Shown here: piece by piece, positions 24,251-62,534 of the stretch
Layout: the number at the start of each line of letters is the position of its first letter
Position numbering within the stretch: the first letter of the stretch is position 1
From: Bdellovibrio sp. ZAP7
GTDB lineage: Bacteria; Bdellovibrionota; FAC87; UBA2466
Direction of reading: 5' to 3'
Assembly (NCBI GenBank): GCA_945878405.1
Contig: CAMCTJ010000007.1
Coordinates: 74,779 to 138,778 of the forward strand
DNA: 64,000 nt
Position numbers and translations under genes: made by a program
Notes under the pieces: model-generated
The model's input: the letters and a program-made list of their open reading frames with translations, nothing else
The model's database searches: none
Told to the model about the DNA's origin: nothing

Positions 24251-24335
24251 CCCCGCGTCAAAAACTTCACAATTCCTCTTTCAAGTTATCATCGCCTAGA
24301 ACCGAAAGTATCTTTGAAGCAGGTGCCGACGTTCT

Positions 24336-32840: not shown

Positions 32841-33162
32841 GGGCTTTTCCTTAAGCAAAACCCAATCCAAATCTAGACAGCCGTAAACTCGATAAGCAGG
32901 TGTCTAACTTTTTTGGGACTACACCAGGAAGATTAAAAAACCACAATGAGAGCAGCCTCTTAGAATGTCTAATTCCTATACACCATTAAGTTCCTACAAA
33001 TTCCAATGCACAAACGAGGGCTTAGCCAAAAGGTACGGCTTTACTTTAGGCGGTTTTTTAATATCCTAGAAGATATCCCAAGGAGCGCTGCGAGGCACCT
33101 TCTGCCCTAGGCTTGGAATTTATAACGGCGCTCAATCCAATAAAATTTTTAAGGAGCCAGAC

Positions 33163-45194: not shown

Positions 45195-45656
45195 ATGCGA
45201 CGGTTTAATGCAAAAGATAAGAAAGTAACTTTTCCAGTGGCTCTAGTGGTGAGTCGCTTTAATGAAGAAGTCACTTCAAAACTTCTGGAAGGAGCTCATG
45301 CCCGTCTTCAGGAGCTGGGGTTTGACGAAGGGCAAATCACAGTGGTGGATGTACCCGGGGCAGTTGAGATTCCCCTCGCCTTGCAGCGTCTCGCAGGACT
45401 CAAAGAGTTTGATGCTTTGATTGCCTTGGGAGCTGTCATTCGCGGCGAGACGAGCCACTATGATTATGTTTGCAATCTGGTAAGCCAAGGTTGCCAGGAG
45501 ATAAGTCTACAATTCAAATTACCCGTGATTTTCGGAGTGCTCACAACGGAAAATGAGGAACAGGCCTTTGACCGATGTGGGGGAAAACACGGCCACAAAG
45601 GGAAAGATGCGGTAGATGCCGCTTGTGAGATGGTGGCTCTTCTTCGTTCATTGTGA
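45195..45656 (+). CDS. ribH: 6,7-dimethyl-8-ribityllumazine synthase
   Basis: 153 aa. 'FPVALVVSRFNEEVT', 'GAVEIPLA', 'ALGAVIRGETSHYDYV'. Confidence 0.9.
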   Translation: MRRFNAKDKKVTFPVALVVSRFNEEVTSKLLEGAHARLQELGFDEGQITVVDVPGAVEIPLALQRLAGLKEFDALIALGAVIRGETSHYDYVCNLVSQGCQEISLQFKLPVIFGVLTTENEEQAFDRCGGKHGHKGKDAVDAACEMVALLRSL

Positions 45657-45670
45657 AGAAATCTTCACAA
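45651..45670. repeat. 20-bp 8-4-8 palindrome TTGTGAAGaaatCTTCACAA (copy 1), overlapping the ribH stop codon
   Basis: Perfect 8-bp inverted arms. Two further copies at 46084 and 50422, all followed by ...T(n)TCT. Confidence 0.7.
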
Positions 45671-45750
45671 TCTCTGCAAAAACGCATGCGTGAGGCCCCG
45701 TAGATTCGGGCAGGGAGCCTATGTTAAGATGTTTGTATAAGGTGGTACGT

Positions 45751-46083
45751 ATGCGGTTAAGTCTCTCAAGGAAAGCTCTGCGTGGTTTTCTCTGCGCTGT
45801 GGTTGGATTAAACCTAGTTGCTTGCAACGCAACTAAATCATCGTCAGTCAGTTCTCCTTCAGTAATCATTGGCGGGAGTAGCTCTACAAATTCCCAAACG
45901 AGTAGTAGTTCCCAAAGTTCTTCTAGTTCAGGTAGCGGCTCTTCCAGTAATACTCCAGCAGTTGCGAGTGTGGCTCCTGCTTCTCAGGCTCTTCCTCCAC
46001 TCACAGTCTCTGGAATAAAAGTTTCATCCGTCTATTCTGGAATTGAAGCTAGCGGAGTTACGTACAACGGCATGTCAGACTGA
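45751..46083 (+). CDS. Small Ser-rich hypothetical lipoprotein bracketed by palindrome copies 1 and 2
   Basis: ORF 45721-46083. The internal Met gives 'MRLSLSRKALRGFLCAVVGLNLVAC' (lipobox LVAC). The rest is poly-Ser 'SSSTNSQTSSSSQSSSSSGSGSSS'. Confidence 0.35.
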   Translation: MRLSLSRKALRGFLCAVVGLNLVACNATKSSSVSSPSVIIGGSSSTNSQTSSSSQSSSSSGSGSSSNTPAVASVAPASQALPPLTVSGIKVSSVYSGIEASGVTYNGMSD

Positions 46084-46103
46084 TTGTGAAGAAACCTTCA
46101 CAA
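46084..46103. repeat. 20-bp palindrome TTGTGAAGaaacCTTCACAA (copy 2), starting immediately after the stop of the small lipoprotein ORF
   Basis: Same arms as copy 1. The central 4 nt differ by 1. Confidence 0.7.
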
Positions 46104-46154
46104 TGTCTTTATAATCTCTTACGCCTAAGAGCACATTGATTGAAGTATTGAAGC

Positions 46155-47348
46155 TTAGGTGGGCGTCTTTGGTATTAAAGCTTTGGTTTTTTCCCAAAAG
46201 CGATTCAACCCAACTGTCGGGTTTAGCTCACCTTGATAGTAGCGGTACGCGTTTTCGCTAAAAAGCGAATAAGAAGAATCAATTTGAGCAATAGCAGAGC
46301 CGATATCAGTCCACTCGTTGAGAGCTATTCCAAATGAGTAATTTGAAAGAGCTTCCTGCAGGCTAGGTAAAGGAGTCGTGATCACCGGTTTTTTTCGAGA
46401 GCAATAGTAAGCTATTTTGGTGGAAGCTTTCCCGATATGAAAAAGCGTTTGATTCACCATCCAAGAGGAAGGCTGAGGAAAATAAGGAGCAAGGCCGATA
46501 TAACTCTCATCTATTAAATCCACTAAGCCCTTCTCATCTAGAAAATCAAAAGTGAAATGGAGCCCCTGATTTTTTTCAAGGCGTCGAATCCTCTTCAGTA
46601 GTTTCGAAGGGGGTTTAAAATGTGTGTGTACTCTTAAGTAAAATGTTGGCGGGATATTCAAAGCAATTGTGTCGAGCATTTCCTCCAAGTTCCATTTTTC
46701 TAAGTTCCCGCAATAGAGAATCATTTTCCCGGTTTTATTAGGGGAGACGTTTGAGGGGAGAGGAAAGCGCTCTTCTGGAGCTACTGCAATGCAATCAATC
46801 GGTTTTCTCCCAATATTTAGTTCTTTTGAGATTAAATCCTTTCTGTTTTTATCCTGACTCAAAACTAAGACAACGGAAGGTAAGCTAGCGGTTTCTTTTC
46901 GAGCAAGCGCCCTCTCATTAGCGGTTCTTAATTCAGTTCTAAATAAAATATGAAAAGATAAGTAAACTACCGGAACCTTTTTGGGAATCTCCATGCGACT
47001 TAAAAGACTCAACCCAGTGGCATCGCAGGTTACTATCAATGAATAATGGCTTTGATGAATGAGGTCTTTCAGTCGGAAAAAATGAATCACACTCCGCCAA
47101 ATCGTTTTTAATTTCCAGGGGCGCCGAAAACTTTGTTTAAAAGCTGAAGGAATGATTCGCCTCACCAACCATACCCACTCAGCAATTTCTTTTCCTTCGC
47201 CTAGACAATTGGAGCGGCTCGGGCAAACCAGATCAAAAGAGAGGTTGTCCGCTTGGCACCTCTCGACCAGAGAATCACAATTAGGATTGGCTCGCCAATA
47301 GCCGTAGGGATATAAAAAAAGAATCTTTTTTTGAGCGCTCAGGTCCAT
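46155..47348 (-). CDS. Hypothetical protein, possibly GT-B-fold glycosyltransferase-like
   Basis: 397 aa with no strong motif. First of a run of co-oriented, overlapping genes in a glycosyltransferase cluster. Confidence 0.35.
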   Translation of the reverse strand: MDLSAQKKILFLYPYGYWRANPNCDSLVERCQADNLSFDLVCPSRSNCLGEGKEIAEWVWLVRRIIPSAFKQSFRRPWKLKTIWRSVIHFFRLKDLIHQSHYSLIVTCDATGLSLLSRMEIPKKVPVVYLSFHILFRTELRTANERALARKETASLPSVVLVLSQDKNRKDLISKELNIGRKPIDCIAVAPEERFPLPSNVSPNKTGKMILYCGNLEKWNLEEMLDTIALNIPPTFYLRVHTHFKPPSKLLKRIRRLEKNQGLHFTFDFLDEKGLVDLIDESYIGLAPYFPQPSSWMVNQTLFHIGKASTKIAYYCSRKKPVITTPLPSLQEALSNYSFGIALNEWTDIGSAIAQIDSSYSLFSENAYRYYQGELNPTVGLNRFWEKTKALIPKTPT

Positions 47349-48052
47349 TTTTTTAATTTGCCTAACAGTTGTTCGTCGAAGTCCCGATGGGAGCGTCGAA
47401 GCATTTCATGATTGAGATGGAGTCCGAGAGCTTTTTGAGGGGGCCGCCATAAGCTTTCAGAATTTGTGAGGAGTTCTGTTTCATCCCATCCCAAAGCGCA
47501 AAACTCCCAGGACGGACGAATATATGAAGCGAGACCAAATCGCTGTACTGCTTGATTGAGAAGCCTCGGCCCGATCTGGCCCCATTCCAAATGATCCGGT
47601 GAGATCTTAATAGACTCTTCCCAACAATATTTCATAACTGGAGACTGGGGGGGAGTTTTGATGACACAGCTAGCAGTGATTCTATCTGTTTCTGTAGTGA
47701 GTGTTTCGCTCGCAAAAACATATGGGACAGAATCAAAATTCCACTCAGCGAGACAAAAAACATCCGTGTCTATCCAAACCCCCCCTTTTTTTAAAAGAAG
47801 AGCATAACGAAAGATATTAGAAAAAGCCGAAAAGCTTCCCTTTCCGGGCCCCTTTTTATATTGGAAAATGTTTTCTTTGGGAAGGATCTCGGTGGCATCC
47901 TTAATAACGACGCCCTCCGGCACCGCTTCTACCAACTCATAGCAATAAAGCTCAACCTGGTGATGGTATTTCACAAAGCTTTTTAATGCCTCTGTGTGTA
48001 GGGGTTTTAATTGCGGGCCAACCCATAAAGTCTGTAAAGCTGTAGCTGACAT
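47339..48052 (-). CDS. DXD-motif glycosyltransferase (sugar-binding region, GT32-like)
   Basis: 237 aa. 'KKGGVWIDTDVFCL' matches the Gly_transf_sug DxD region. 10-nt overlap with the downstream gene. Confidence 0.5.
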   Translation of the reverse strand: MSATALQTLWVGPQLKPLHTEALKSFVKYHHQVELYCYELVEAVPEGVVIKDATEILPKENIFQYKKGPGKGSFSAFSNIFRYALLLKKGGVWIDTDVFCLAEWNFDSVPYVFASETLTTETDRITASCVIKTPPQSPVMKYCWEESIKISPDHLEWGQIGPRLLNQAVQRFGLASYIRPSWEFCALGWDETELLTNSESLWRPPQKALGLHLNHEMLRRSHRDFDEQLLGKLKKWT

Positions 48053-48084
48053 AAAACAGACTTTATCCTACACTTAGAACTTCG

Positions 48085-48200
48085 ATGAAAAAACTCATAA
48101 TTCAAATACCCTGTTGGAATGAGGCGGAGACGGTTAGTGAGACCATTTTAGCGCTCCCCACCAGGGTAGAGGGTTTTGATTCAGTTGAGGTCTTAGTCAT
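48085..48200 (+). pseudogene. Remnant of a GT2 polyprenol-phosphate glycosyltransferase (N-terminal ~38 codons only)
   Basis: 'MKKLIIQIPCWNEAETVSETILALPTRVEGFDSVEVLVI' aligns with 'LKLIIQIPCFNEEKSLPLALAALPREVPGFETVEWLVVDDGS' of the intact GT2 at 60795-61736. Homology is lost after about 38 codons. Confidence 0.5.
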
Positions 48201-48205
48201 TATTT

Positions 48206-49174
48206 TTAAAACGACTCGGGCTTTAGCGCTGTCTTATTTCCGATATGCAATAAAGCCAAAACTCCTCCCCAAATTCGCCCCAACAAGAGCTGGCCTTGAA
48301 GAGCAAGCTTGAATTTACCAGGGCCGCGACAAGGTCTAAAGGCCATCCAGATTAAAATCGGGTTTTTTAAAATAGCGTAAACATTCGGCCAAATAACTTT
48401 GTGAAAAATGGAGTTTTTCCCTGATAAGTAGAGTTCCATTTCAGCGTCAGAACGCCCCTGCCACCAGGCTCTTCTTCTAAAGTAGCCTTGTGTTAATCTA
48501 TCAGTGCTAATCTGATGAAAACCTTTTATTGCGGGGTCATAAAAAAACCTAGCTCCCAGAGCTTCTAGTTTAAGTAGAGTCAGAGTTTCATCATTACTTC
48601 TCAAGTTGCCCGTTTGTCGGTTAATACGTTCGTCAAAGCCACCGATTTTTCTTAGTAAATGAGCTGGGAGAACCAAATTCGCAGAACAAAGTGCCTTAGC
48701 TTGCACAGGAATAAAATCAGGTCCTAACTGAATAGAGCTGAGATAGTTTTCAAGAAAAGGGCCATACCAACGGGGAAGAGGACTGTGAAAGTTTAGTTGT
48801 ACTTTTCCGCCCAAACAATCCGTTGACGTATCGAGAGTTAAATATCTTTCAAAAATTCGTTCTAGCCATTGGGGATGAGGTAACGTGTCATCATCAAGAA
48901 AGGCGATCAAACTACCTGCAGCCGCTTTAAACCCTCTGTTTCTCGAAAAATTTGAGCCCACTCTCAATTCTTTAAGCATTCTCAGGTTCGGCAATCGGCC
49001 TTTCCATTTTTCCAAAACATCTTGAGTGTTATCGGAGGAAGCATTGTTGACTATGATAGCCTCCCAAAACTGAGAGGGTAAACTTTGAGAGGCTAGCTCC
49101 ATTAAAAGTCTTTCCAGTTGGTTTTGTCGATCCCTCGTGGGAACGACTACTGAAATGAAACGATCGGAAATCAC
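48206..49174 (-). CDS. Glycosyltransferase family 2
   Basis: 322 aa. 'ISVVVPTRDRQNQLERLL', 'AFLDDDTLPHPQWL' (DxD). Confidence 0.7.
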   Translation of the reverse strand: MISDRFISVVVPTRDRQNQLERLLMELASQSLPSQFWEAIIVNNASSDNTQDVLEKWKGRLPNLRMLKELRVGSNFSRNRGFKAAAGSLIAFLDDDTLPHPQWLERIFERYLTLDTSTDCLGGKVQLNFHSPLPRWYGPFLENYLSSIQLGPDFIPVQAKALCSANLVLPAHLLRKIGGFDERINRQTGNLRSNDETLTLLKLEALGARFFYDPAIKGFHQISTDRLTQGYFRRRAWWQGRSDAEMELYLSGKNSIFHKVIWPNVYAILKNPILIWMAFRPCRGPGKFKLALQGQLLLGRIWGGVLALLHIGNKTALKPESF

Positions 49175-50310
49175 ACCATCTTCCCCTTGGTTTGGAGTGA
49201 AGACTTTAAGAGCTCAAACAGCCGATTTCCCAATTGCCCCCATTCGTAACTAGCAAGTTCTTTGGAGTCGGGGTGGCTCCATTTATCTTGGTCCATTAAT
49301 CGATTTCTAAAAAGCTCGAGCGGGGCGATATGAAGTCCCTTTAGATTCTGGTTAAATCCCCGAACTCCAAAGGGAGTAGTGAGAACAGCGAGCCCATTTC
49401 CCAAACATTCTATGAGCTTTACATTACTTCCGGAACCCGAACAAACGGGGTTCAGCGCCACGTCACTTTCCTTAAAAAACGGGAATAAATGATTCTGAAC
49501 ACCGCAGGAAATGATGTTTTCCGGAAGAGACTCTGATAATTGAACATTTCCAACAACGAGTAATGACCATCGATGTTTTATTTCTGGATGAACAAAAAGA
49601 TGGGCGAGGGCTTGCAACCCCCTTTGATTGTGAATTGAGTCGCTAGCAACATACAACGCAATACGGTGGTTTTCAGCAATGCCCCATGCTTTTTTAAACT
49701 TTGGGGTGCTCTCTCTCGAATTGAGATGTTCTGTTGAGGTGTTGTGAAATCCATTGGGGAGGCTCTGTATCAATTTTCCGGGCCTTAGTTTTTCAAAAAT
49801 AAGTTTATCTTCTTCTGAAACACAAACGACTAAATCTGCTTCTTTAATTGCTCTTTGTTCATTTCTTTTTAAAAGTGCAACTGCCCGAGGTGAAAAACCG
49901 TCGTGATACATGGCTTCGTGGTTATGTGCTGAGAGCACTTTGACTTTACCTGTGACACGCTTTGCAATTTGCCAGAGAAAGGGAGACTCAGAAATGACGA
50001 TATCAAAAGTTTCTTTTAAAGGGCGTGGAAGCGGCAGAAAAGTATTGAGACTGCTGGTAAGTGAATAAGAGGGGAAACCCAAACGTGAACTCAGGCCATC
50101 TAACCATTGTATTTGATTTTGTGACTCATAATGGCTACAGCGAGGAACAAGCTCTTGGGATTCAAGAGGTGAGAGCCTGGGTGAGATAAAAGACCAAACG
50201 GTGACTTGAGCCCCCTGATGGGCCAATTGCTCTGCCAAACTACGAATTCGGGTCACCGCTCCATTGAAATTATTGATAAGACGATGGTGAGTGAGAACCA
50301 GAACCTTCAT
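49171..50310 (-). CDS. Glycosyltransferase family 1 (GT4-type)
   Basis: 379 aa. 'MKVLVLTHHRLINNFNGAVTRIRSLAEQL' and C-terminal GT-B donor region. Confidence 0.65.
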   Translation of the reverse strand: MKVLVLTHHRLINNFNGAVTRIRSLAEQLAHQGAQVTVWSFISPRLSPLESQELVPRCSHYESQNQIQWLDGLSSRLGFPSYSLTSSLNTFLPLPRPLKETFDIVISESPFLWQIAKRVTGKVKVLSAHNHEAMYHDGFSPRAVALLKRNEQRAIKEADLVVCVSEEDKLIFEKLRPGKLIQSLPNGFHNTSTEHLNSRESTPKFKKAWGIAENHRIALYVASDSIHNQRGLQALAHLFVHPEIKHRWSLLVVGNVQLSESLPENIISCGVQNHLFPFFKESDVALNPVCSGSGSNVKLIECLGNGLAVLTTPFGVRGFNQNLKGLHIAPLELFRNRLMDQDKWSHPDSKELASYEWGQLGNRLFELLKSSLQTKGKMV

Positions 50311-50421
50311 GAAAGCCTATTTCAAGTCGTAAAACATAAAAAGTAAAGTTTGATATATTGGATGCCCATCACCCATGATCTCAGATTAAAAAAGTGAGCG
50401 GTCTTGGTTAGCCCCAATCAA

Positions 50422-50441
50422 TTGTGAAGATATCTTCACAA
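50422..50441. repeat. 20-bp palindrome TTGTGAAGatatCTTCACAA (copy 3), in the divergent intergenic region about 180 nt upstream of the giant ORF
   Basis: Same 8-bp arms as copies 1 and 2. Sits between the GT cluster start (50310, minus strand) and the giant gene start (50621, plus strand). Confidence 0.7.
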
Positions 50442-50620
50442 TTTCTCCACAATGTTCAAGCTGAGCCCCCAATAATTGCGTCAAGTTAAAATGATACCCT
50501 GAAAGGTAAGGCGGAACGTATGTGTATTTGGAAACCACATTTAGCTTCGATGAGGAATCTTGCGCCACGCGTAAACATCAAGAGTAAAAGGAAAAAAACC
50601 GAAAAGGAGCGTGAAACCAA

Positions 50621-53600
50621 GTGAAACGCTTCCTTCCATTTCATGCTGTCCTTTTATTCTTCGCGGTTTGCTTTGCTTCTTTTGCAGAAGAAAAAGGTCG
50701 GCTGAGTGCGAGTGATTTGGCGCCTGGTGCATCGGATGGTTTCGTCTTTAGTAATTCCGCAACTCCAGATACTCAGTGCGATGAGGGCAGTGGGGGTGAC
50801 TGCTGCGATGGAACTCTTCAAGAAACGTTTGCCGGGGTAACGAAATTCACAACAAGTTACTGCAAAGGCCGATATGCCGGAAAAGCAAGCTCCACTCGTT
50901 ACGGAATTCGGTTTGATACGTTTCACGCTTTTCGAAGTATCCTCAACGAAAATCAGTTAGTACTTGTGAATTCGAATGCTGGATGCACGAGCGGCGACTG
51001 CTGCCCCACCGGCGGAAGTAAGACCTATAACTGGCTCCTAGTAAGAGCGAGACCTTTTGATAATTACAGCTCGCCGATGGATATGTCGCTGGATACGACT
51101 TACGTTGGGGGAACCATCACCTATGACCATTCGCAAACTGTAAAGTGGTCCGGATCTTCAAAATTTAGTTTAAATGCCCTAGATGCTGAAACGAAGACTA
51201 ACTCCTCTGCTTATGGAGCCCGGCTTTTTGGAACTTCTACCTGCAGCGCGGGAGAATTTAAAGCAAGCGCAGTCACAGATTTTACTGCCGCCAATAGGCC
51301 TCTTGGAAATTATGGGTACTGGCTCTTTGGTAAGAACGTAGCTTTCTACCGACAGGTAAGTGCAGATCCTGTCATTGCCGTTGCTTTTCCAAGGCCAGCG
51401 CAGAGTCTGAGTTCTTCTGGAGTAATGGCTAGTAAGAACAAACAAGTTTTTACTGGAAATTATACCGGCTTCACGACGAGGGGAGTTCAGGTTCAAAGAA
51501 ATGTCATGCTGATTCCTGATGTCGCGGGAACAACTTTTACGATTTCGGAAGTAGCAGATCCCTCCAATCCCTTCTCAGTCAGCACTCTGGGGACTTTAGC
51601 TTGCACGAATTTAGATGAGCCGAGCCAAGGTTTCTGCCGAGGCACCCTGACCCTGACTGCAGTTCCTGGATTTTCAGGAAAAGCCACTTGCATGATGGCT
51701 TACGATATCGGTAATCGGGATCTTGTTTTTTGTAGCGCGCAGAATCCCTCCGCTGATAGCAATCACCAACGAGCGCTCGTCACCATTGCGGCAGTTTCAT
51801 CGCACAAGAGCGTTCTTGCGATGACTGCGTCGCCAGTACACTTAGATGCCAATACCTCCAGTGGGCAAATGTGTGCAACCGTGGAAAATATGACGTCGCG
51901 AGCAGTCGACACATTAACGCTTACTGGAAACTTAAGTGGTGACTTCTCGGCGGTTTCTCTCTCAGGTTCTGTCACAGCGCCGTTCAGTGGCCTTACTGGT
52001 TCAGTGTCAGCTTGTGGCACTTCTTTGCCAGCTTTTTCAAAATGTAAATTGTGTTCGAATGTTACTTTAACGACTCAAAAAGTAAGTGCCCACGCTTTAA
52101 CCCTGACTTTTGGAGATACACCGAGTTCGACAAAAAGCATGTCAGACACAGCGGTTGCGACTCGTGGGGTTTCGAACCTTCAATATGAAGTGGGGAAAGT
52201 AACCCAGAACAAGACTCCCTCGGTTAAAGCCGTCTTTGCCAATGGCACTACCCAAAACATTGATGCAATTAAGGAAAAGCTACAGTGTTCAGGAGTTTGT
52301 ACTTCAGCCACTGGAACCCGATCGCTTGCCTATACCTTGGAAGGCCTTGAGAGCGCTCCCGCAGTGGGCGATGTGCTCGTAAGCACTGAAGAAGAGCTTT
52401 GTTACAACGAAGAAGACGACGACAACGACGGAACCACCGACTGCCAAGATAACGACTGCGATTCCGAAAGAGCAGATATCAGTCACACCGATATTCTATG
52501 TAATTATAATAGCGAGCGAGATTGTGCAGACTCTTTTGATAATGATCGAGATGGGAATACCGATTGTGATGATGGAGATTGTGCCCTTGCATGTAATGTT
52601 TGGGAAACCGCTTGTAACAATAGTCTCGACGATGATTCTGACGGAAACACAGATTGTGCCGATTCAGATTGCAACGGACAAGTAAATGCTGACTTTAGAT
52701 ACTGTGGTCTCGAGACTCACTCCTATGGTGGGTGTGTGCTCGATGGAGTTGACGATGACAGCGACGGTTATACCGATTGCGCCGATCCGGATTGTTACGG
52801 CGGTTATGTTGGTTGGGGACCCTATGGAGGAACTTGTGACTCTGGAACTGAAACTAATTGCAGCGATGGATACGATTTCGACGGCGATGGTTTAACTGAC
52901 GCCAATGATCCAGATTGTGTGGTCTGCCTTGATTCTGACGGCGATACGTTTGGTGACGGTTGCTCTGCTGGCTCCGATTGCGATGATAACTTCAGCGACG
53001 CTTCCAACAATTGCTCCGACAACGTGGTTTTAGATTTGCGTTTCGATACAGATACGAGCGATTCCTCGAACTATCATCACGCGGTTGGAGCTAATGGAAG
53101 CCCCGCTATTTCCACGAGCAACGCGAAGTTTGGTGGAGGGAGTGCAAACTTTAATGGTAACGGCGACAGAATCGATATTTCCTCAAGCACAGATTTTGAT
53201 CTGGAAGACGGGGACTACACTATTGAGTTCTGGACTTTTGTACGAAGCGTAGCAGGGTCAGATGCTGCTAGATTGTTTACTTTAGAAAATAACGATGAGG
53301 CGTGGGGAATAATTCTTGCCAACGATGGTAGCAACAGTCTTTACGTGAATCATTATGGAATTGGTGAGGGTTTTGAAGTCAGTGGCGCACTCAACGGGAA
53401 ATTGAACCAGTGGGTGCATCTGGCCTTGGTGAAGAACGGCACAACTAGAACTCTTTATATTGATGGGGTAGCTGGAGGCTCGACCAACTCAAGAGTGTTG
53501 CCGGCTAATGCTGCGCAATTATCAATTGGTGGCAGTACCATTTGGTATCCTTATACACAGTTTGACGGTCTTATCGACGAACTGAAAATCACCAAAGGCT

Positions 53601-56600
53601 ATGCACGCTACACCACAAACTTCACACCTCCCACTTGCGCATCGATGAGCGAATCCGATGCCGATAGCGATGGTATCTGTAATAGCGCGGATACTGAAAG
53701 CTGCAGTGATTCGATTGATAACAACGGTAATGGCCAGACGGATGAAGAATGTTCTTCTTGCAACAGTAGCGATTCCTCCTCGGCAATTTGTAACCAAACT
53801 GGCACTTGCTGGAATCAAAGCGGTTGTCAGTGTGGAGTCTATGATTCAGTTAGCTACGGGCAATCCTGTACGATGGGCGGTGGCGGATCAACCGAAAACT
53901 GTTCTGATTCATTAGATAATGATTCCGATGCTTCAACCGATTGCCAAGATGCGGATTGTGATGGGGTGTCAGGCGGTAGCGGTATCTGTCACAACAATTC
54001 TGAAACTTGTAGTGATAGCTTTGATAATAATGGCAATGGCCAGACAGATGAAAATTGTTATCCCTGCATGGACAACGACGGCGATGGATATGGTTATTAT
54101 TGTGCGATCGGTGAAGATTGCGACGATTGGGCTAATTGGATAAACCCCGGTGCTTCAGAAATCTGGAATGGGTACGATGACAACTGTAACGGCCAGGCCG
54201 ATGAAGGACTTGGCAATCCCTTTGACTGGGACGGAGATGGGTGGCTATCTTACATGGGAGATTGGTTTGATTGCAATGATGCCGATGGGTCCATAAACCC
54301 CGGTGCTTCCGAAACCTGCAGCGACTCAGTCGACAACAACTGCGATGGCCAGACAGATGAAAATTGTTATCCCTGCATGGACTACGACGGTGACGGGTAT
54401 GGTTACTACTGTGTTCCCGGCGAAGATTGTCAGTGGAATATGGGAGAGGGGAATTCCGCTATTCACCCCGGAGCTGCAGATGACCAAAGCGATGGTACCG
54501 ACAATGATTGCGACGGTCAGATCGATGAAGATTATACAGTTCCGTGCACAGATTCGGACACTGATGGCGTGTGCAGTGGATCTGACTGTGACGACAGCAA
54601 CGCAATCTTCAGCACAGATTGCAGCAGCAACGTGGTTTTAGATTTGCATTTTAATAGCGACTTCAGTGATTCTTCGGGTCACAATCACAATGGGACTCCA
54701 AATGGAAATGCGGAAATCAGCTCTGATGTTGCCAAGTTCGGGGGAGGCAGTGCGCATTTTGATGGAAGTTCTTGGTTAACAGTAACGGCGTCTTCAGCTC
54801 TCGCTGTGGGAACGGGTGATTTTACCTTGGAAGCCTGGGCTTATCCGACACAAGTTAATGACTTTAGCGATTTGGCTGCCGTACTAGATACACGGCCCTA
54901 TGGCGCGGGAACTGGCTTACTGATTTGGTTGGATTCTGCTTCTGGAAAATGGGTAGGGTATACCTCTACAAACGGAAATGAGGATCAACTTGTTATTAGT
55001 TCCCCTACAACAGCAACCCTCAATGCGTGGACTCATTTAGCATTGGTGCGTTCCGGAACAAGTCTTAGGTTCTTTGTAAATGGAGAACTTGCCGGAACCG
55101 AAACTTTAAATGCTAACTGGAATTTTACTCAGGACACTACGGCACCGGGTTTTGTGGGAACTGCAGCCGATGCCCCTGGATACTTCCGCAACTTCTATGG
55201 CTATATCGATTCAGTAAAAATCACCAAAGGCGCAGCGCTCTACACAACCACCTTCACGCCCGCTACTTGCGCATCGATGAGCGAATCTGATGTCGATAGC
55301 GATGGCATCTGTGATAGCGCGGATACTGAAAGCTGCAGTGATTCAATTGATAACGATGGCGATAGTCAGACAGATGAAGAATGTTCTTCTTGCAACAGTA
55401 GCGATTCCTCCTCGGCAATTTGTAACCAAACTGGCACTTGCTGGAATCAAAGCGGTTGTCAGTGTGGAGTCTTTGATTCAGTTAGCTACGGGCAATCCTG
55501 TACGATGGGCGGTGGCGGATCAACCGAAAACTGTTCTGATTCAGTAGATAATGATTCCGATGCTTCAACCGATTGCCAAGATGCGGATTGTGATGGGGTG
55601 TCAGGCGGTAGCGGTATCTGTCACTACAGTTCAGAAACGTGCAGTGATAGCTTTGATAATAATGGCAATGGTCAAACAGATGAGAACTGCAATTCTGACG
55701 TAAGCGGCGGCGATCCGTACTTTGATGATGTGAGAGTGCTTGTTCATGCGGACGAAAACATTACGAATCATGCAAACGGGGGAACGCCCACAGTAACTTT
55801 CGTTGGCGGAGCGAATTACTCGACCTCCGACAAGAAGTTTGGATCAGCTTCCGCGCAGTTCTCACCGCAGATAACCCAGTACTGCGATGGGTGGTGGGGT
55901 TGTTATGACCAGTTAGTAGTTCCCAATTATTTAAAGATAAACGACACCTCAAGAACGATTCCTGCGAATTACACTGCTGAGTTCTGGGTAAAACCCGATT
56001 CCGATTGGAGTGGCGCAGTCTCAAGAAGATTATATCAACGAGGCGTTAGCGATATGGGGATGTATGGTATCGATGTTTATTACAATAACAATCGAATCTA
56101 TTTTAGTTTTTACAATAGCAATTATTACTATGATGGGTCTGGTGAGGGGGGGTGCGATCAATCGGGTAGCACTTATGGAGATGTTGGTACTTTGAGTGCG
56201 AACACTTGGTACCACGTAGCGATTGTGAGAGAGGGTAGTGCGATCAGAATTTATTTCAACGGAAACCGAATTGGGACGGGCACACTAAGCGCTAATTCCT
56301 ACACGTATTGGGGCACAATTCCCTCATGTACTGCCACAGAAGCTATCACACTTAGCGATTGGGGAAATGTAAACGAAGGTTTCGGAGTATCTTTTGACTA
56401 CGGTGACAATATTTACGATAACGTCACCGCTAAGTTTGACGAAATCCGAATCAGCAACAGAGCTCGTTACTCAGATACAAGCTTTACTCTTCCCACTTCG
56501 CCGTATCCCAATACCAAGCAAGCGGTAGCTCCCGAAATCAGTATTTCGCCCTCGAGCTACACGTTAACAGCTGGCACAGCGATGACAGCGATTGTTCCAA

Positions 56601-59299
56601 GCCTCACCATGGGCACGATTGATTCTTGCGTTGTATCGCCTTCGCTCCCCGCAGGATTGTCGTTAAATAGTTCCACTTGCGGTATTTCTGGAACTCCGAC
56701 TTATGGTGGAGGCTCGCAGTCTTATACGATTACTCCTTCGAACTCGGTCGGTACTGGTAATAGTGTCACCGTATCATTGACCATTAACGGTGCGGATGCT
56801 GGCGGCAATTATTACACCGGTGGTTCATTGGCTAGTGGAGTTGTTAATAACGCCGCGGGGCTTTCTGTCGAGTTCAGTAATTCAAATGATTTCACATCAA
56901 ACTTCGCAATCACAACACCAGCTGACGGAACGGCAACTGTCACGAACGGACAACTAGAATTTAGAAACCCAAATCCCGACAGACTTCCTGGTTATCATTT
57001 CAAGAACCCCGTATCTGCTTCGGCTATCGAAATCAAATTTACTCATCCAAGCCTCTATCCAAATTGGCATTGCCCAACTATTGCATTCTCCAATGGACTG
57101 GGTACTTTCACTGTTGCTTATGATCCGAAATATTCGGATGGCGGTTGGTGCGATGCAAACTCAATCAAGACTTCATTTGGCAGCTTCCCCATGGGTCATT
57201 TAGCCGGTGGCCAAGCTCATATCATTAAGCTTGAGGTCAATACACAAACACAAACTGCTACCCTCACGATTGATGGAACCTCACAGACCTATACGAATGC
57301 GATGTTTGCACAAAAACTCACCAACTTTGAACATGTACCAAATTATTCGTGGTACTGCGGCAGTTACACTACTTACATTGATTATGTCAGAGCCTACGAT
57401 TATGGTTGCTACTCAAATGGCTCGGCTGACAGTAGTTTCAACGCAAACGGAACGGGTTTCTGCAGCGGCACTTACTACATCGGTGGAGTAGCCTACGCAG
57501 GATTAGATTCCAACGGAAATGGAACGTCTGGTGGATTGCTTTACTCAAGTGGTTCACTCTTTACCGGAATGTACTCGGATTGGAACTGCTACGTTAATGG
57601 CGCCAATACTGGTGGCGTCGTGAGTGGTACCGGCTGGTGTAGTGCGGATAGTGTTTATTACGTAAGCTACAGCGGAACGAGTCTTCCCTCCAGCGGCACT
57701 GGAAACTACATGGGCAACTATTACAGTAGCGGCACATTGGTAGGCACAACGGCTTCGATATCGATTATGAGTCAGCCGTCCGATCAAACGGCTTCAAGCG
57801 GCAGCGCTACTTTCAGTATTGGTGCAAACATCACGGCTCCCGCTTCACTGAGTTACCAATGGCAGAAACAAGAAAGCGGCACGGGAAGCTTTAGCGATAT
57901 CAGCGGGGCAACGAGTGATTCACTTGTGCTTTCAAATCTGACCTATTCTTCAGATAATGGAGATGTGTATCAAGTCGTGTTGAGCGGAACACAAGGGGCC
58001 TCGAGTATTACCAGTAGCTCTGCAACGTTGAGTGTTCCTGTTTACGCTCCCGATGTACCGACTTCTGTAAGTGGAGCCGCTGGCAATGCCGAAGTGGAAG
58101 TAACGTGGACTGCCCCTAGCAATAATGGTGGAAGCGCGATTACGGATTATGTGATTCAGATTTCATCTGATAGCGGAAGCTCTTGGACAACTTACAGTGA
58201 TAGCGCTTCTACTTCAACGAGTGCTTCAGTAACCGGATTAACCAATGGCACAAGCTATGTCTTCCGAGTTGCCGCAGTAAATATTGGAGGTACAGGAGAT
58301 TTCAGTCTTGCTTCGACTTCAGTCTCTCCGAGTGCCAATGCAGGGGATCCTTATTTCAGTGACGTAAGAGTACTTGTGAACGCGGACGAAAACATTACGA
58401 ATCATGCAAACGGGGGAACGCCCACAGTAACTTTCGTTGGCGGAGCGAATTACTCGACGTCCGACAAGAAGTTTGGATCAGCTTCTGCACAGCTCTCACC
58501 GCAGATAACCCAGTACTGCGATGGTTGGGGTTGTTATGACCAGTTAGTAGTTCCCAATTATTTAAAGATAAACGACACCTCAAGAACGATTCCTGCAAAT
58601 TACACTGCTGAGTTCTGGGTAAAACCCGATTCCGATTGGAGTGGCGAAACCTCAAGAATGTTATATCAAGGGGGCGTGTTTGATCCTGGAGTAAGCGGGC
58701 TTCAGCTTTATCATTACAACGGTCGTCTGTACCTCAGTCTGAATAGCTATAACTATGGCTATTATTCGGGTCAGGGCGACTGGAGTTGCAATCATTCTGG
58801 TTACAACTATGCGGATGTGGGTACTTTGAGCGCGAGTACTTGGCACCACATAGCGATTGTGAGAGAGGGCAATGCACTCAGACTTTATTTCAACGGAAAC
58901 CGAGTCGGTAATTCAACGATTAGCGCCAGCTTCGAATCTTATGATGGCTCTTCGCCTGCCGGTGGATGTACAGCTTCGGGCGCTATCTCTTTGAGTAGTT
59001 GGGGTGAAACAAAGGCGGTCTTCGGCGTGGAGTCGGACTACAGTGATTATGTTTTCAGCAACGTCACCGCTAAGTTTGACGAAATCCGAATCAGCAACAG
59101 AGCTCGTTACTCCAGCGCTACTTATACTGTTCCAACCGCAGCATTCCCAAAAAGTGCAGCGCCTGTCTCTTGCAATAGTGAGACTTATGCGGGAGATACT
59201 TGTAACCAGGTTGGAACCTGTTACAGCCCTACGGGCTGTTCGTGTGGCATTTACAGTACTATCTCCTATGGAGATACCTGCTCCAATCCCGGCCAGTAA
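50621..59299 (+). CDS. Giant secreted multidomain surface protein (2892 aa)
   Basis: Domains in order: signal peptide (MKRFLPFHAVLLFFAVCFASFA), TSP3-like Asp/Cys Ca-binding repeats, MopE-like Cys/Asp repeats, four concanavalin-A/LamG-like modules, a He_PIG-type Ig domain, an Ig-like domain, FN3, and a C-terminal Cys-rich knot. It is a single uninterrupted 8.7-kb ORF, and all large opposite-strand ORFs lie inside it. Domain motifs include 'DNDxDGxTDCxDxDC', 'INPGASExC.D.VDNNCDGQTDE', 'DFTIEAW...WHHVAIVREG..LRLYFNG', 'LPAGLSLNSSTCGISGTP' and the FN3 'VEVTWTAPSNNGGSAITDYVIQ'. Confidence 0.85.
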   Translation: MKRFLPFHAVLLFFAVCFASFAEEKGRLSASDLAPGASDGFVFSNSATPDTQCDEGSGGDCCDGTLQETFAGVTKFTTSYCKGRYAGKASSTRYGIRFDTFHAFRSILNENQLVLVNSNAGCTSGDCCPTGGSKTYNWLLVRARPFDNYSSPMDMSLDTTYVGGTITYDHSQTVKWSGSSKFSLNALDAETKTNSSAYGARLFGTSTCSAGEFKASAVTDFTAANRPLGNYGYWLFGKNVAFYRQVSADPVIAVAFPRPAQSLSSSGVMASKNKQVFTGNYTGFTTRGVQVQRNVMLIPDVAGTTFTISEVADPSNPFSVSTLGTLACTNLDEPSQGFCRGTLTLTAVPGFSGKATCMMAYDIGNRDLVFCSAQNPSADSNHQRALVTIAAVSSHKSVLAMTASPVHLDANTSSGQMCATVENMTSRAVDTLTLTGNLSGDFSAVSLSGSVTAPFSGLTGSVSACGTSLPAFSKCKLCSNVTLTTQKVSAHALTLTFGDTPSSTKSMSDTAVATRGVSNLQYEVGKVTQNKTPSVKAVFANGTTQNIDAIKEKLQCSGVCTSATGTRSLAYTLEGLESAPAVGDVLVSTEEELCYNEEDDDNDGTTDCQDNDCDSERADISHTDILCNYNSERDCADSFDNDRDGNTDCDDGDCALACNVWETACNNSLDDDSDGNTDCADSDCNGQVNADFRYCGLETHSYGGCVLDGVDDDSDGYTDCADPDCYGGYVGWGPYGGTCDSGTETNCSDGYDFDGDGLTDANDPDCVVCLDSDGDTFGDGCSAGSDCDDNFSDASNNCSDNVVLDLRFDTDTSDSSNYHHAVGANGSPAISTSNAKFGGGSANFNGNGDRIDISSSTDFDLEDGDYTIEFWTFVRSVAGSDAARLFTLENNDEAWGIILANDGSNSLYVNHYGIGEGFEVSGALNGKLNQWVHLALVKNGTTRTLYIDGVAGGSTNSRVLPANAAQLSIGGSTIWYPYTQFDGLIDELKITKGYARYTTNFTPPTCASMSESDADSDGICNSADTESCSDSIDNNGNGQTDEECSSCNSSDSSSAICNQTGTCWNQSGCQCGVYDSVSYGQSCTMGGGGSTENCSDSLDNDSDASTDCQDADCDGVSGGSGICHNNSETCSDSFDNNGNGQTDENCYPCMDNDGDGYGYYCAIGEDCDDWANWINPGASEIWNGYDDNCNGQADEGLGNPFDWDGDGWLSYMGDWFDCNDADGSINPGASETCSDSVDNNCDGQTDENCYPCMDYDGDGYGYYCVPGEDCQWNMGEGNSAIHPGAADDQSDGTDNDCDGQIDEDYTVPCTDSDTDGVCSGSDCDDSNAIFSTDCSSNVVLDLHFNSDFSDSSGHNHNGTPNGNAEISSDVAKFGGGSAHFDGSSWLTVTASSALAVGTGDFTLEAWAYPTQVNDFSDLAAVLDTRPYGAGTGLLIWLDSASGKWVGYTSTNGNEDQLVISSPTTATLNAWTHLALVRSGTSLRFFVNGELAGTETLNANWNFTQDTTAPGFVGTAADAPGYFRNFYGYIDSVKITKGAALYTTTFTPATCASMSESDVDSDGICDSADTESCSDSIDNDGDSQTDEECSSCNSSDSSSAICNQTGTCWNQSGCQCGVFDSVSYGQSCTMGGGGSTENCSDSVDNDSDASTDCQDADCDGVSGGSGICHYSSETCSDSFDNNGNGQTDENCNSDVSGGDPYFDDVRVLVHADENITNHANGGTPTVTFVGGANYSTSDKKFGSASAQFSPQITQYCDGWWGCYDQLVVPNYLKINDTSRTIPANYTAEFWVKPDSDWSGAVSRRLYQRGVSDMGMYGIDVYYNNNRIYFSFYNSNYYYDGSGEGGCDQSGSTYGDVGTLSANTWYHVAIVREGSAIRIYFNGNRIGTGTLSANSYTYWGTIPSCTATEAITLSDWGNVNEGFGVSFDYGDNIYDNVTAKFDEIRISNRARYSDTSFTLPTSPYPNTKQAVAPEISISPSSYTLTAGTAMTAIVPSLTMGTIDSCVVSPSLPAGLSLNSSTCGISGTPTYGGGSQSYTITPSNSVGTGNSVTVSLTINGADAGGNYYTGGSLASGVVNNAAGLSVEFSNSNDFTSNFAITTPADGTATVTNGQLEFRNPNPDRLPGYHFKNPVSASAIEIKFTHPSLYPNWHCPTIAFSNGLGTFTVAYDPKYSDGGWCDANSIKTSFGSFPMGHLAGGQAHIIKLEVNTQTQTATLTIDGTSQTYTNAMFAQKLTNFEHVPNYSWYCGSYTTYIDYVRAYDYGCYSNGSADSSFNANGTGFCSGTYYIGGVAYAGLDSNGNGTSGGLLYSSGSLFTGMYSDWNCYVNGANTGGVVSGTGWCSADSVYYVSYSGTSLPSSGTGNYMGNYYSSGTLVGTTASISIMSQPSDQTASSGSATFSIGANITAPASLSYQWQKQESGTGSFSDISGATSDSLVLSNLTYSSDNGDVYQVVLSGTQGASSITSSSATLSVPVYAPDVPTSVSGAAGNAEVEVTWTAPSNNGGSAITDYVIQISSDSGSSWTTYSDSASTSTSASVTGLTNGTSYVFRVAAVNIGGTGDFSLASTSVSPSANAGDPYFSDVRVLVNADENITNHANGGTPTVTFVGGANYSTSDKKFGSASAQLSPQITQYCDGWGCYDQLVVPNYLKINDTSRTIPANYTAEFWVKPDSDWSGETSRMLYQGGVFDPGVSGLQLYHYNGRLYLSLNSYNYGYYSGQGDWSCNHSGYNYADVGTLSASTWHHIAIVREGNALRLYFNGNRVGNSTISASFESYDGSSPAGGCTASGAISLSSWGETKAVFGVESDYSDYVFSNVTAKFDEIRISNRARYSSATYTVPTAAFPKSAAPVSCNSETYAGDTCNQVGTCYSPTGCSCGIYSTISYGDTCSNPGQ
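53581..54061 (+). repeat. Intragenic direct repeat A, copy 1 (~480 bp; second copy at 55211-55690, ~95% identical with >100-bp exact runs)
   Basis: Both copies encode 'TCASMSESD.DSDGIC.SADTESCSDSIDN.G..QTDEECSSCNSSDSSSAICNQTGTCWNQSGCQCGV.DSVSYGQSCTMGGGGSTENCSDS.DNDSDASTDCQDADCDGVSGGSGICH..SETCSDSFDNNGNGQTDENC'. Confidence 0.85.
55211..55690 (+). repeat. Intragenic direct repeat A, copy 2
   Basis: See copy 1. The two copies are about 1.63 kb apart. Confidence 0.85.
55701..56480 (+). repeat. Intragenic direct repeat B, copy 1 (~780 bp LamG-like module; second copy at 58341-59115)
   Basis: The first ~300 bp and last ~60 bp are near-identical between copies: 'GDPYF.DVRVLV.ADENITNHANGGTPTVTFVGGANYSTSDKKFGSASAQ.SPQITQYCDGW' and '..NVTAKFDEIRISNRARYS'. 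The middle is diverged but homologous. A 3-nt indel distinguishes WWG from WG. Confidence 0.8.
58341..59115 (+). repeat. Intragenic direct repeat B, copy 2
   Basis: See copy 1. The two copies are about 2.64 kb apart. Confidence 0.8.
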
Positions 59300-59317: not shown

Positions 59318-60805
59318 TCAGTGTGTCCGCGTCCACAAACAAAGATCCTGAGCAAACCCTTCCTTGAGGTAATTGCGTTCCACAGTGCTCAGTTTTGTAA
59401 AAAAGAAGTCATCAATTGCAACGTAGAGGATGTTTTCTTCCTCAAGGCGATTCTTTTCAAACAAGCGACTCTCCTGTGCTCTACTGCCAGACACAGGAAA
59501 CCCGGGGAGAACCTGATCCACTTCATCCATGCTTCGGGGAGACCGCAGCCATTGCGCTTGGGAGTCTTCGTTGAACACATAAGCAGGGCATCGACTAAAC
59601 CAAACGTAAAAGACAGGATCGGTTCTCCTAAGCTTGTATAAGGCTGTGCTCAAAACTTCAATTTGTTCTCTTCTCTTTTGGGTTTCGTTTCTCATTTCTA
59701 AGGGCAGTGCCAAAGCGGTATTGAGGAGTGCTACCGCTAAAAGCCCCCCCAGGACGACGGGTTCAAATTTTCCCCAGGGAATCTCAAGTAGTATCTGAAA
59801 AACAAAAACCACCATCAGGGGGAGAATCAGCAACAGAGCATATTCGTGAATGGGGCTCAGGAGAAACAATCCACAGCTGAGAGCTGCAATTAACAATAAG
59901 TATCTCAGAGGTGTTCGCGTTTTTTTATTGAGGATTGCCGAGACGATACTCCCCACGAAGAGGGCCAGAAACAACAACAAAAGAACAGGGTCGCTCTTCC
60001 AGAGCTTAAAAAACAAGTCGGCAACGACTTCCGTTTTTTCAACCACTCGTTTTGAGATGAGGTTGAGGTTCATCAAGAACATATGATCAATCGCAGCGTA
60101 AAGGGCTCCTTGAATAGCCAGCACAAGCCCGATAATACCCAAAGAGATTATCTCTCCCCAAACCAGTGAAAACCGTCTTTTGATTGGTACCTTAAATCCT
60201 AAAGCCACTTGATCAGCTATTAGGAATCCTAAATTTAAAGGCAAAAACTTAGGGTGAAACCCAAGCGCAAGCCCCAAACACATTCCGGCGAGCAGTCTTT
60301 TTTCCCGAGATAGAAGAAATAGAAAAAGGACACATAAGAAACCAACCGTGATATCCGGGCGTGTCTGAAATGCAGTTCCTTGAACTATCCTGAGACTCAG
60401 AAAGAGGGCCCCGGCCACAGTCCCCTTGGCTATCTTTCGAGAGCCCTGAGTTAACGTCGAAACTGTGATGCCTACCATCATGGCAGTTACTCCTGCCATC
60501 AGAAGGGGAAACAAACGTAAATAAGTCAGGGTTTCAGCAGACTCAACCGCTCCGGGCTTTATCCAGAGCAACAAAGCATTCAGCCACGCAAAGACAGGTC
60601 CGTGGTGTTCAAAAAAGTCTTTGAAAATAATTTTGCCTCTAAAAACATTCCAAGCAATATGCGTGTGCTGGAGGTCGTCCTGGCCAAAAGAATAGGCAAA
60701 GGCTCTCGCTCCCAAGGCATATAAGTGGTACCCGAACACCAAGACAGATCCGAGGATCAAAAGTACTCCCCACCACTCAACCGTTTTTTTCTTTTTAGAA
60801 TCCAT
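59318..60805 (-). CDS. Polytopic membrane glycosyltransferase of the PMT/ArnT (GT39/GT83-like) family (candidate)
   Basis: ORF 59318-60868. Likely start 'MDSKKKK'. About 12 TM helices. The first loop 'YHLYALGARAFAYSFGQDDLQH' resembles the 'LRLYGLG..DE' loop of GT39/83 enzymes. Overlaps the upstream GT2 by 11 nt. Confidence 0.5.
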   Translation of the reverse strand: MDSKKKKTVEWWGVLLILGSVLVFGYHLYALGARAFAYSFGQDDLQHTHIAWNVFRGKIIFKDFFEHHGPVFAWLNALLLWIKPGAVESAETLTYLRLFPLLMAGVTAMMVGITVSTLTQGSRKIAKGTVAGALFLSLRIVQGTAFQTRPDITVGFLCVLFLFLLSREKRLLAGMCLGLALGFHPKFLPLNLGFLIADQVALGFKVPIKRRFSLVWGEIISLGIIGLVLAIQGALYAAIDHMFLMNLNLISKRVVEKTEVVADLFFKLWKSDPVLLLLFLALFVGSIVSAILNKKTRTPLRYLLLIAALSCGLFLLSPIHEYALLLILPLMVVFVFQILLEIPWGKFEPVVLGGLLAVALLNTALALPLEMRNETQKRREQIEVLSTALYKLRRTDPVFYVWFSRCPAYVFNEDSQAQWLRSPRSMDEVDQVLPGFPVSGSRAQESRLFEKNRLEEENILYVAIDDFFFTKLSTVERNYLKEGFAQDLCLWTRTH

Positions 60806-61736: not shown

Positions 61737-61766
61737 TGTAAAATAGTTTAGGTCAAAAGAAGAAAT

Positions 61767-62414: not shown

Positions 62415-62534
62415 CAGCTATTCGGTGAGAATACGGCTTCTGCCAGGCACCTTCAGGCACCTTCTGAGGGGGTCTAATCCTTGCACCTTTAACCTCCTGT
62501 AACAGGAACCGAAGGCTTGTATTCTGGTGGTGTA

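Follow-up and report, generated by a model that had tools for sequence, protein, structure and literature searches.

A 22-bp palindrome heading predicted surface-protein promoters behind ribH in Bdellovibrio sp. ZAP7: a candidate operator

We analyzed a stretch of 64,000 nucleotides from Bdellovibrio sp. ZAP7 (assembly GCA_945878405.1, contig CAMCTJ010000007.1, forward-strand positions 74,779 to 138,778), in the following called the window. From the end of ribH onwards it carries three copies of a short palindrome, distributed among the genes for a small Ser-rich lipoprotein, a group of glycosyltransferases (GT) and a giant secreted protein. The genes around the palindromes, namely ribBA, ribH, four genes on the minus strand and the giant gene, were identified with Pfam and NCBIfam profile scans. 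The central part of the locus is composed as follows:

45650–45671, no strand: palindrome copy 1, ATTGTGAAG-AAAT-CTTCACAAT, at the left edge of an accessory island
45751–46083, plus strand: coding sequence of the small Ser-rich lipoprotein, MRLSLSRKALRGFLCAVVGLNLVAC followed by a Ser-rich tail; its ATG at 45751 lies behind AAGGTGG
46083–46104, no strand: palindrome copy 2, loop AAAC, between convergent genes
46143–50420, minus strand: GT cassette with genes for a 397-aa protein without assigned function, a DXD-type GT, a GT2 and a GT4 (Pfam/NCBIfam)
50421–50442, no strand: palindrome copy 3, loop ATAT, with the GT4 operon and the giant gene diverging on either side
50621–59299, plus strand: giant secreted protein of 2892 aa with LamG, fn3, He_PIG and MopE-type motifs

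A pattern search of the window with TTGTGAAGNNNNCTTCACAA gave exactly three matches (45651–45670, 46084–46103 and 50422–50441), and the same pattern was not found once in 100 dinucleotide-preserving shuffles of the window. Allowing 3 mismatches added no site in the window beyond the three palindromes. The original prediction had described three copies with perfect 8-bp inverted arms; number, coordinates and perfection were confirmed, but the arms are 9 bp long, so that the element reads ATTGTGAAG-N4-CTTCACAAT with 22 bp in all. Its account of the placement held as well, with one adjustment. Copy 1 overlaps the ribH stop codon as proposed and takes in the final codon together with the stop (TTG TGA). 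Copy 2 does adjoin the stop codon of the lipoprotein open reading frame (ORF), yet at its full 22 bp it begins on the last base of this stop codon rather than immediately behind it. Copy 3, predicted in the divergent promoter region about 180 nt upstream of the giant gene, ends 178 nt before the giant-gene GTG; on its other side, the divergent GT4 gene has its ATG 110 nt away. The extension CACAAT.TCT, reported as common to all three copies, is real and represents the start of a degenerate third half-site in an 11-bp register. The three copies span 4.8 kb, and no other copy exists in the approximately 80 kb of the source contig covered by the window and its extensions L163 and L164 (contigs and loci collected for comparison are cited by L numbers). 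Extending the contig by about 8 kb rightward (L163) and about 6 kb leftward (L164) revealed no added site even at 4 mismatches, and the bare half-site is not enriched in the window outside the palindromes. A lone perfect right arm CTTCACAAT followed by TCCTCT is found at 24265–24273, about 65 nt upstream of a csrA-like gene (start at about 24338); a single additional match to a 9-mer is no more than chance would give.

The palindrome is part of a longer arrangement. In a unit of about 100 nt it is often followed 2 bases on by a direct repeat of its right arm, then by a spacer of about 50 nt, an extended -10 element TGnTAnnnT, another 8–10 nt and, as a very short leader, AAGGnGGnACGTATG. This layout recurs after copies 1 and 3 and at sites in L020, L014, L035, L089, L004, L048, L076 and L168. 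In cross-species alignments the invariant blocks within otherwise diverged spacers are the 18 arm positions, TGnTA and the block reaching from the Shine-Dalgarno sequence (SD) to the ATG. The corresponding elements of the window are:

45672–45753, plus strand: promoter unit 1 with a degenerate third half-site, a GAGGCCCCGTAGATT block and the extended -10 element TGTTAAGAT at 45722–45730
45739–45753, plus strand: SD and start of unit 1, AAGGTGGTACGTATG, from alignments
46105–46142, plus strand: truncated remnant of a giant-gene-type unit after copy 2, with the half-site CTTTATAAT at 46107–46115, from alignments
50443–50522, plus strand: promoter unit 3 with the third half-site CTCCACAAT at 50445–50453, a TAATT block and the extended -10 element TGATACCCT at 50492–50500
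50508–50522, plus strand: AAGGCGGAACGTATG of unit 3, from the alignment

Units 1 and 3 thus precede the small lipoprotein gene and the giant gene as predicted promoters. The association between the palindrome and the remainder of the unit is close. In the DNA fetched to that point, all 13 distinct occurrences of GGnGGnACGTATG lie 40–110 nt downstream of a palindrome, which is perfect in 12 cases and carries one mismatch in the remaining one. When a unit profile was built without the palindrome, it recovered only copies preceded by a palindrome. In the GGnGGnACGTATG context the spacer nACGT between SD and ATG is conserved as strongly as the SD itself. Sites that are not homologous to these units also have a TGnTAnnnT element 17–73 nt downstream, facing the gene. 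Relative to the -10 element, on promoters predicted from the sequence, the center of the palindrome mostly falls near -75, and for two sites near -44 to -48. Inside the units we found no sigma-54 promoter; the extended -10 element is located there instead.

We then considered how the palindrome is distributed across genomes. When one genome per species was scanned for the 18 specified bases, 596 Gb altogether yielded 32 exact sites, compared to roughly 9 expected by chance according to our own estimate. About 22 of the 32 fall in approximately 15 metagenome-assembled genomes (MAGs) with 1–4 sites per MAG, and these MAGs are labelled Bdellovibrionota, Bacteriovoracia, Pseudobdellovibrionaceae or with the old name “Deltaproteobacteria”. 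A scan of viral contigs returned 4 matches, which corresponds to the background level. When metagenomes were scanned with a variable spacer of N2–N7, there were 33 matches with N4, including more Bdellovibrio-like contigs, whereas matches at the remaining spacings came from unrelated families of repeats. The stem sequence of the palindrome is identical across many species and conserved over several families. At 24 independent sites the nearest gene start lies 33–180 nt downstream, with a single case of 368 nt. At least six sites are located between divergent gene starts (copy 3, also labelled W3, and sites in L007, L032, L029/L011, L073 and L111:7451), and only copy 2 is found between convergent genes.

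The genes downstream of the sites share a surface-protein theme. A signal peptide is predicted for 21 of 24 downstream genes versus 41% of background ORFs assessed with the same crude rule (p = 3.5e-6), and 11 of the 24 encode lipoproteins in comparison to 13 of 202 background ORFs (p = 9e-8). Small Ser-rich lipoproteins follow the site in L020, L031, L016, L048, L076 and L150. Large proteins in the same position comprise cadherin/Big_9 (1191 aa), Big_12 (953 aa), Big_13 (858 aa) and subtilase (1130 aa) types; DUF1554 and LamG/fn3 proteins as well as proteins of 1367 and 1670 aa also occur. The genes directly upstream of the sites are unrelated to each other: ribH, fhs (formate-tetrahydrofolate ligase) and epimerase/GT genes. 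Across species the palindrome therefore holds a conserved position upstream of predicted promoters of a coherent gene set, as would be expected of an operator.

Variation among strains and species was informative about what is being recognized. Six public contigs, among them MAG GCA_964203895.1 and contigs of freshwater metagenomes, carry the RibH protein of the window unchanged. All six strain contigs have the palindromes, and none of the strains shows an imperfect copy 1 or 3; in two strains (L003, L005) the loop of copy 3 is AAAT. Copy 2 has a 1-bp deletion in the same two strains and is the sole copy with a disruptive mutation. The site orthologous to copy 1 is present in L020 and L168, present with one mismatch each in L089 and L166, and absent from L167, L169, L170 and L171. 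The main variation among sites is G/A at arm position 4, observed at three independent sites, of which two changed in one arm only (copy 1 of L089 and L111:7451) and one in both arms (L025:6705). The loop reads AAAN or NTTT in 27 of 36 sites and is flanked by a purine. Its orientation flips between orthologues: AAAT versus ATTT at the ribH stop codon, AAAC versus GTTT before the giant gene. Additional half-sites in direct orientation are offset by exactly 11 bp in 8 of 81 flanks and by 22 bp in one, while all other offsets examined have 0–1 cases each. The independent site L111:7451 consists of three direct repeats 11 bp apart, followed by an inverted arm. In two contigs with a G+C content of 0.32 (L103:1724–1800 and L098) the same palindrome is followed by more CACAAT repeats every 12–14 nt. 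The half-sites in 11-bp register, the variation at position 4 and the loop flips together argue for recognition of double-stranded DNA by a symmetric protein rather than for a hairpin.

In order to assess the locus in an unbiased sample, we chose RibH homologues by protein similarity alone and read six contigs. The suspicion that the region behind ribH had been inserted was largely borne out by synteny. In four relatives (L167, L169, L170 and L171, 77–88% RibH identity) ribH is directly followed by a 327–369-aa gene homologous to window positions 62517–63596, as tested by protein match for L167. A 252–294-aa gene and a sigma-54 activator come next, which is the order beyond the right end of the window. 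This defines the stretch from 45657 to about 62470 as accessory, and none of the four relatives has a palindrome anywhere in the 7–12 kb read. In L166 (86% RibH identity) a palindrome with one mismatch overlaps the ribH stop codon and different island content lies behind it. The slot after ribH is occupied there by a 1234-aa secreted protein with weak PT-HINT/Vint (HINT-domain) matches (L166:8553–12257); the site after ribH looks like a hot spot for large secreted proteins. L168 has a perfect palindrome 13 nt past ribH and the start of a lipoprotein-type unit, after which the contig ends. Since the two relatives with an island gene have the palindrome and the four without the island lack it, the palindrome belongs to the downstream gene and not to ribH. 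Because it tracks the downstream surface gene, it is not a ribH terminator. The island and its right flank are:

45657 to about 62470, no strand: accessory island with the lipoprotein gene, the GT cassette, the giant gene and genes for a 516-aa protein, a GT2 and a methyltransferase
62471–62485, plus strand: GG-N10-GC (sigma-54-type) promoter-like block GGTCTAATCCTTGCA, core right flank, conserved in five genomes

The right boundary of the island (alignment A6) is located just before this conserved block, and no palindrome is found at this edge, even with mismatches allowed. In the five genomes the block lies upstream of a gene for a 359-aa secreted protein. An activator of the AAA+/HTH_8 type, 327 aa long, is encoded in the adjoining syntenic region (L163:12624–13607); it has a GAFSGA motif and lacks an N-terminal sensor domain. 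Block and activator are probably a small sigma-54 regulon and make up the core sequence flanking the island on its right.

Nested in the island, the GT cassette (4.3 kb, between copies 2 and 3) is itself variable. It is absent in L004, which belongs to the same species, and in L089 and L035 from two related species. Its G+C content is lower (0.426–0.427). In L089 the order is ribH, palindrome, lipoprotein gene, palindrome and giant gene without GT genes between them, and in L035 the giant gene lies directly behind a palindrome that overlaps the fhs stop codon. L004 has an identical RibH and a near-identical region from ribH to the lipoprotein gene; copy 2 is followed there by a complete giant-type unit instead of the cassette, and then the contig ends. 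The homology between this unit and the sequence downstream of copy 2 in the window stops at about 46142. Comparison of L004, L006 and the window places the start of the cassette about 38 nt after copy 2 and the resumption of homology about 70 nt after copy 3. These boundaries are approximate, as the compared alleles are diverged, and they appear to fall inside the repeated promoter unit and not inside the palindrome. No integrase, transposase or resolvase domain was detected in the island genes or flanks by the Pfam/NCBIfam scans. Homologous exchange between repeated units is the simplest account of the gain and loss of the cassette. Several contigs (L004, L014, L020, L023, L028, L168) end about 70–390 nt from a palindrome or inside a unit, consistent with repeated units or strain-level structural variation disrupting the assemblies.

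On balance, and with modest confidence, we regard the palindromes as the operator or upstream activating site of a symmetric, sequence-specific DNA-binding regulator that acts on surface-protein promoters. This regulator would bind the 22-bp palindrome at the upstream end of the unit, either as an activator contacting RNA polymerase from upstream or, at the closer sites, as a repressor; both modes are conceivable. The regulon would consist of cell-surface proteins of two kinds, small Ser-rich lipoproteins on the one hand and very large proteins of adhesin-like or protease type on the other. Copy 1 would serve the lipoprotein gene and copy 3 the giant gene, perhaps also the divergent GT operon. 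Copy 2 may be a former giant-gene site that was stranded by the arrival of the GT cassette and is now probably a relic operator; the decay of this copy in two strains fits a stranded site without promoter or gene downstream. Promoter units may travel with their surface-protein genes, and as repeated units they would provide homology for rearrangement. Of the two readings offered by the original prediction, the one with operators for a dimeric regulator of the giant gene and the lipoprotein gene is the candidate that the comparative evidence supports best.

Several observations weigh against this interpretation. Among the 30 window ORFs scanned with Pfam or NCBIfam there is no DNA-binding regulator, and all-versus-all clustering of the ORFs near the sites gave no recurrent family except syntenic neighbors. 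The promoter was recognized from its sequence only. Many sites lie 0–30 nt past the upstream stop codon, a placement resembling that of a terminator. Almost every site is perfect at 18 of 18 positions in an all-or-none manner, while the sites of ordinary transcription factors grade into imperfect matches; most comparison loci were gathered by searching for the perfect palindrome and represent a biased sample. Furthermore, two variants (L025:6705 and L024:55) have double changes that are symmetric and compensatory, and both single-arm variants at the ribH position retain a G-U pair on the sense strand. Template switching inside palindromes can also yield symmetric changes and loop flips, so neither needs to indicate selection for structure.

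Several of these points are those on which a hairpin in RNA or single-stranded DNA would draw, acting as a terminator or insulator without U-tract or as a stabilizer of the upstream gene's 3' end just before the next promoter. Stems are perfect almost universally with about -10 kcal/mol, most co-directional sites are located 0–30 nt past stop codons, and the compensatory and G-U-retaining variants point the same way. Copy 2 was in addition flagged as terminator-like by a loose terminator scan due to the GTCTTTAT that follows it. The claim that no copy is followed by a U-tract stands for copies 1 and 3, which have no T-run on either strand. The predicted RNA hairpins of the palindromes are modest (about -10 to -13 kcal/mol), 3 of the 9 stem pairs being G-C, and an Rfam search matched no family to the palindromes, whether at the gathering threshold or with E values as high as 1. 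The RibH-matched relatives without the island have nothing comparable after ribH, which detaches the element from the upstream gene, and at the sites between divergent starts there is nothing to terminate. The stem is identical across many species without free covariation, changes at position 4 in one arm create an A-C mismatch on one strand, the loop orientation flips between orthologues, and half-sites spaced by 11 bp have no role in a hairpin. We therefore consider this explanation unlikely. Harder still to reconcile with the data is a transcribed leader element recruiting an RfaH, LoaP or UpxY-type NusG paralogue, as ops/JUMPstart does. Very long surface-protein genes and a glycosylation locus are fitting targets, a weak sigma-70-like match exists upstream of copy 3 (50350–50379), and ops forms a small hairpin in the non-template strand. 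But the conserved extended -10 element and SD lie downstream of the palindrome and not upstream, many targets are tiny lipoprotein genes, and the L035 palindrome overlaps the fhs stop codon, leaving no room for a dedicated upstream promoter. The element is symmetric with a loop orientation not fixed relative to the gene, and no KOW/NusG paralogue is present among the window ORFs scanned; such a leader is improbable.

The second reading of the original prediction, with REP-like (repetitive extragenic palindromic) or recombination sites marking the edges of an inserted island, has to be taken apart. An island is indeed largely borne out by the comparison with relatives. Hundreds of genome-wide copies irrespective of gene context, which had been named as the mark of a generic REP element, are contradicted by three copies in about 80 kb of contig at one locus and 1–4 exact copies in each related MAG. 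With the REP/BIME (bacterial interspersed mosaic element) type of dispersed palindrome the element shares its shortness and its location near gene ends. The half-site is not enriched outside the palindromes, the sequence is conserved over several families whereas REP sequences are species-specific, and the sites are tied to promoters, with at least six between divergent starts versus one between convergent genes. For the sequence available a REP element is refuted, and we assign it a negligible probability; the palindrome is neither a terminator nor a REP element. More attention is due to the possibility that the palindromes are sites of recombination or characterize a mobile cassette of promoter and gene, where surface-protein and GT cassettes would be gained, lost or replaced. 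Copy 1 forms the left edge of a 16.8-kb island missing in four relatives, copies 2 and 3 flank the 4.3-kb cassette missing in L004, L089 and L035, and in L166 the palindrome is followed by other island content. Genes near the sites are ordered differently from species to species, and a break within about 100 nt of a site is seen in many metagenomic contigs (L004, L014, L023, L028, L168). The island, on the other hand, encodes no integrase, transposase or resolvase, its right edge lacks a palindrome, and the apparent cassette boundaries lie about 38 nt past copy 2 and about 70 nt past copy 3. The ribH junction varies between an overlap with the stop codon in some genomes and a position 13 nt after it in L168, and the 4-nt core is too short for tyrosine recombinases. 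As exchange between repeated promoter units accounts for the same facts, we hold recombination sites, including those of attC, dif or res type, to be rather unlikely as well. A combination of both functions appears doubtful: the units could be parts of a cassette system, recombinase-independent or of novel type, in which genes for surface proteins and for glycosylation are shuffled at hot spots, for instance the ribH 3' end, with a dedicated protein binding the palindrome and the 11-bp-phased half-sites to control expression and promote exchange.

Some features of the neighboring genes complete the description of the locus. The lipoprotein coding sequence shows in-frame indels between strains and has homologues in L020 and L089; neither Pfam nor NCBIfam gave a match. 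Public gene calls on L001, L002 and L004–L006 omit this ORF and call an antisense ORF of 73–107 aa instead, and the small lipoprotein is probably absent from protein databases. Between unit 3 and the giant gene lies one further reading frame:

50520–50624, plus strand: 34-codon upstream ORF that starts at the ATG of unit 3 and whose TGA overlaps the giant-gene GTG

The corresponding ATG of L035 and L089 shares the frame of the giant ORF, adding 18 aa ahead of the signal peptide. Translational coupling of the 34-codon ORF and the giant gene is possible. Homologues of the giant protein are present in L035, L089, L031 and L013; a homologue search with its N-terminus returned 2 proteins only and was uninformative. 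Beside the giant gene, positions 59318–62414 encode the 516-aa protein (about 8 membrane segments, unmatched in Pfam), the GT2, which resembles polyprenyl-phosphate sugar synthases (AglJ/PpgS-like), and the methyltransferase. Together with the Ser-rich lipoprotein these genes suggest periplasmic glycosylation of surface proteins. Elsewhere in the window, an SAH (S-adenosylhomocysteine) riboswitch (Rfam RF01057, 51.8 bits) is located at 33074–33140 upstream of a 466-aa ORF (33163–34563), and TGGCACAAGAGATGC at 16584–16598 is a near-consensus sigma-54 promoter just 5' of a cluster of flagellar rod, ring and FlgM/FlgN genes (16.6–25 kb).

How predatory Bdellovibrio-like bacteria regulate their genes has been little mapped, and the majority of such lineages are uncultured. 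Here, in several families, a sharply defined 22-bp site marks predicted promoters that belong to genes for lipoproteins, a protease and giant adhesin-like proteins. It offers a handle for finding the regulator and for delimiting a surface-protein regulon that may bear on prey contact. In addition, the region after ribH appears as a strain-variable hot spot for surface glycoprotein genes, which matters for population variation in metagenomes and would explain assembly breaks.

Literature searches on this motif, on Bdellovibrio palindromes and on MrpC or N8-spaced CRP sites turned up nothing relevant and no account of the motif. We compared the palindrome with established systems. One of them is the Rex operator (ROP), which has the consensus TTGTGAA-N4-TTCACAA (TTGTGAANNNNTTCACAA; PMC5355995 and other papers) and is bound by a homodimer. 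Both are inverted repeats with identical 7-nt half-sites (TTGTGAA/TTCACAA), but in all three copies and all related sites the half-sites are separated by 6 nt (G-N4-C) as opposed to 4 nt in the 18-bp ROP, corresponding to TGT-N12-ACA here and TGT-N10-ACA in the Rex operator. The targets are surface proteins rather than the NADH/redox and fermentation genes of Rex, and there is no rex gene among the window ORFs scanned. With CRP/FNR sites the palindrome shares the TGTGA/TCACA pentamers, and with the CRP site also the length of 22 bp and the A/T-rich center; its positions near -43, -63 and -73 resemble those of class I and class II activator sites. The pentamers are spaced by N8 in every copy in contrast to N6 in CRP/FNR sites (TGTGA-N6-TCACA, with the TGT-N10-ACA geometry also seen in Rex), the positions are not in strict helical register, and no regulator with a cNMP (cyclic nucleotide) domain was identified. 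The palindrome thus does not conform to Rex and CRP/FNR sites in spacing, nor to Rex in its targets. As a precedent for N8 spacing we considered the MrpC site (GTGTC-N8-GACAC) and rejected it: read as TGT-N10-ACA it has ordinary CRP geometry.

The TyrR box TGTAAA-N6-TTTACA (PMC10170061) does share the TGT-N12-ACA geometry, and 5 of 6 bases match per half-site, a resemblance only. TyrR boxes work together with sigma-70 promoters, which they precede or overlap, and the -10 element predicted behind the palindrome is of the sigma-70 type as well. Position 4 is G in the palindrome versus A in TyrR, although three variant sites have A, and the targets are unrelated to aromatic amino acids. No TyrR-type regulator could be linked to the sites: the 327-aa HTH_8 regulator at L163:12624–13607, just outside the window and the only one of this fold nearby, is syntenic with the sigma-54-type block and probably serves that promoter.

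Regarding arrangement, several copies of one palindromic operator within a few kb are known from the lac-type operators O1, O2 and O3; here there is one promoter unit per copy. REP/BIME elements and terminators likewise place a short palindrome often just past a stop codon. The palindrome differs from them by its low copy number, its conservation across species, its presence at divergent promoters, the missing U-tract and its absence after ribH without the island. JUMPstart/ops, like the palindrome, is a short conserved element heading variable surface clusters flanked by core genes, but ops is asymmetric and transcribed, whereas the palindrome is symmetric and apparently located upstream of the promoter. 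Seen beside these systems, the palindrome is a predicted operator and not a new kind of system, and as such is not surprising in kind.

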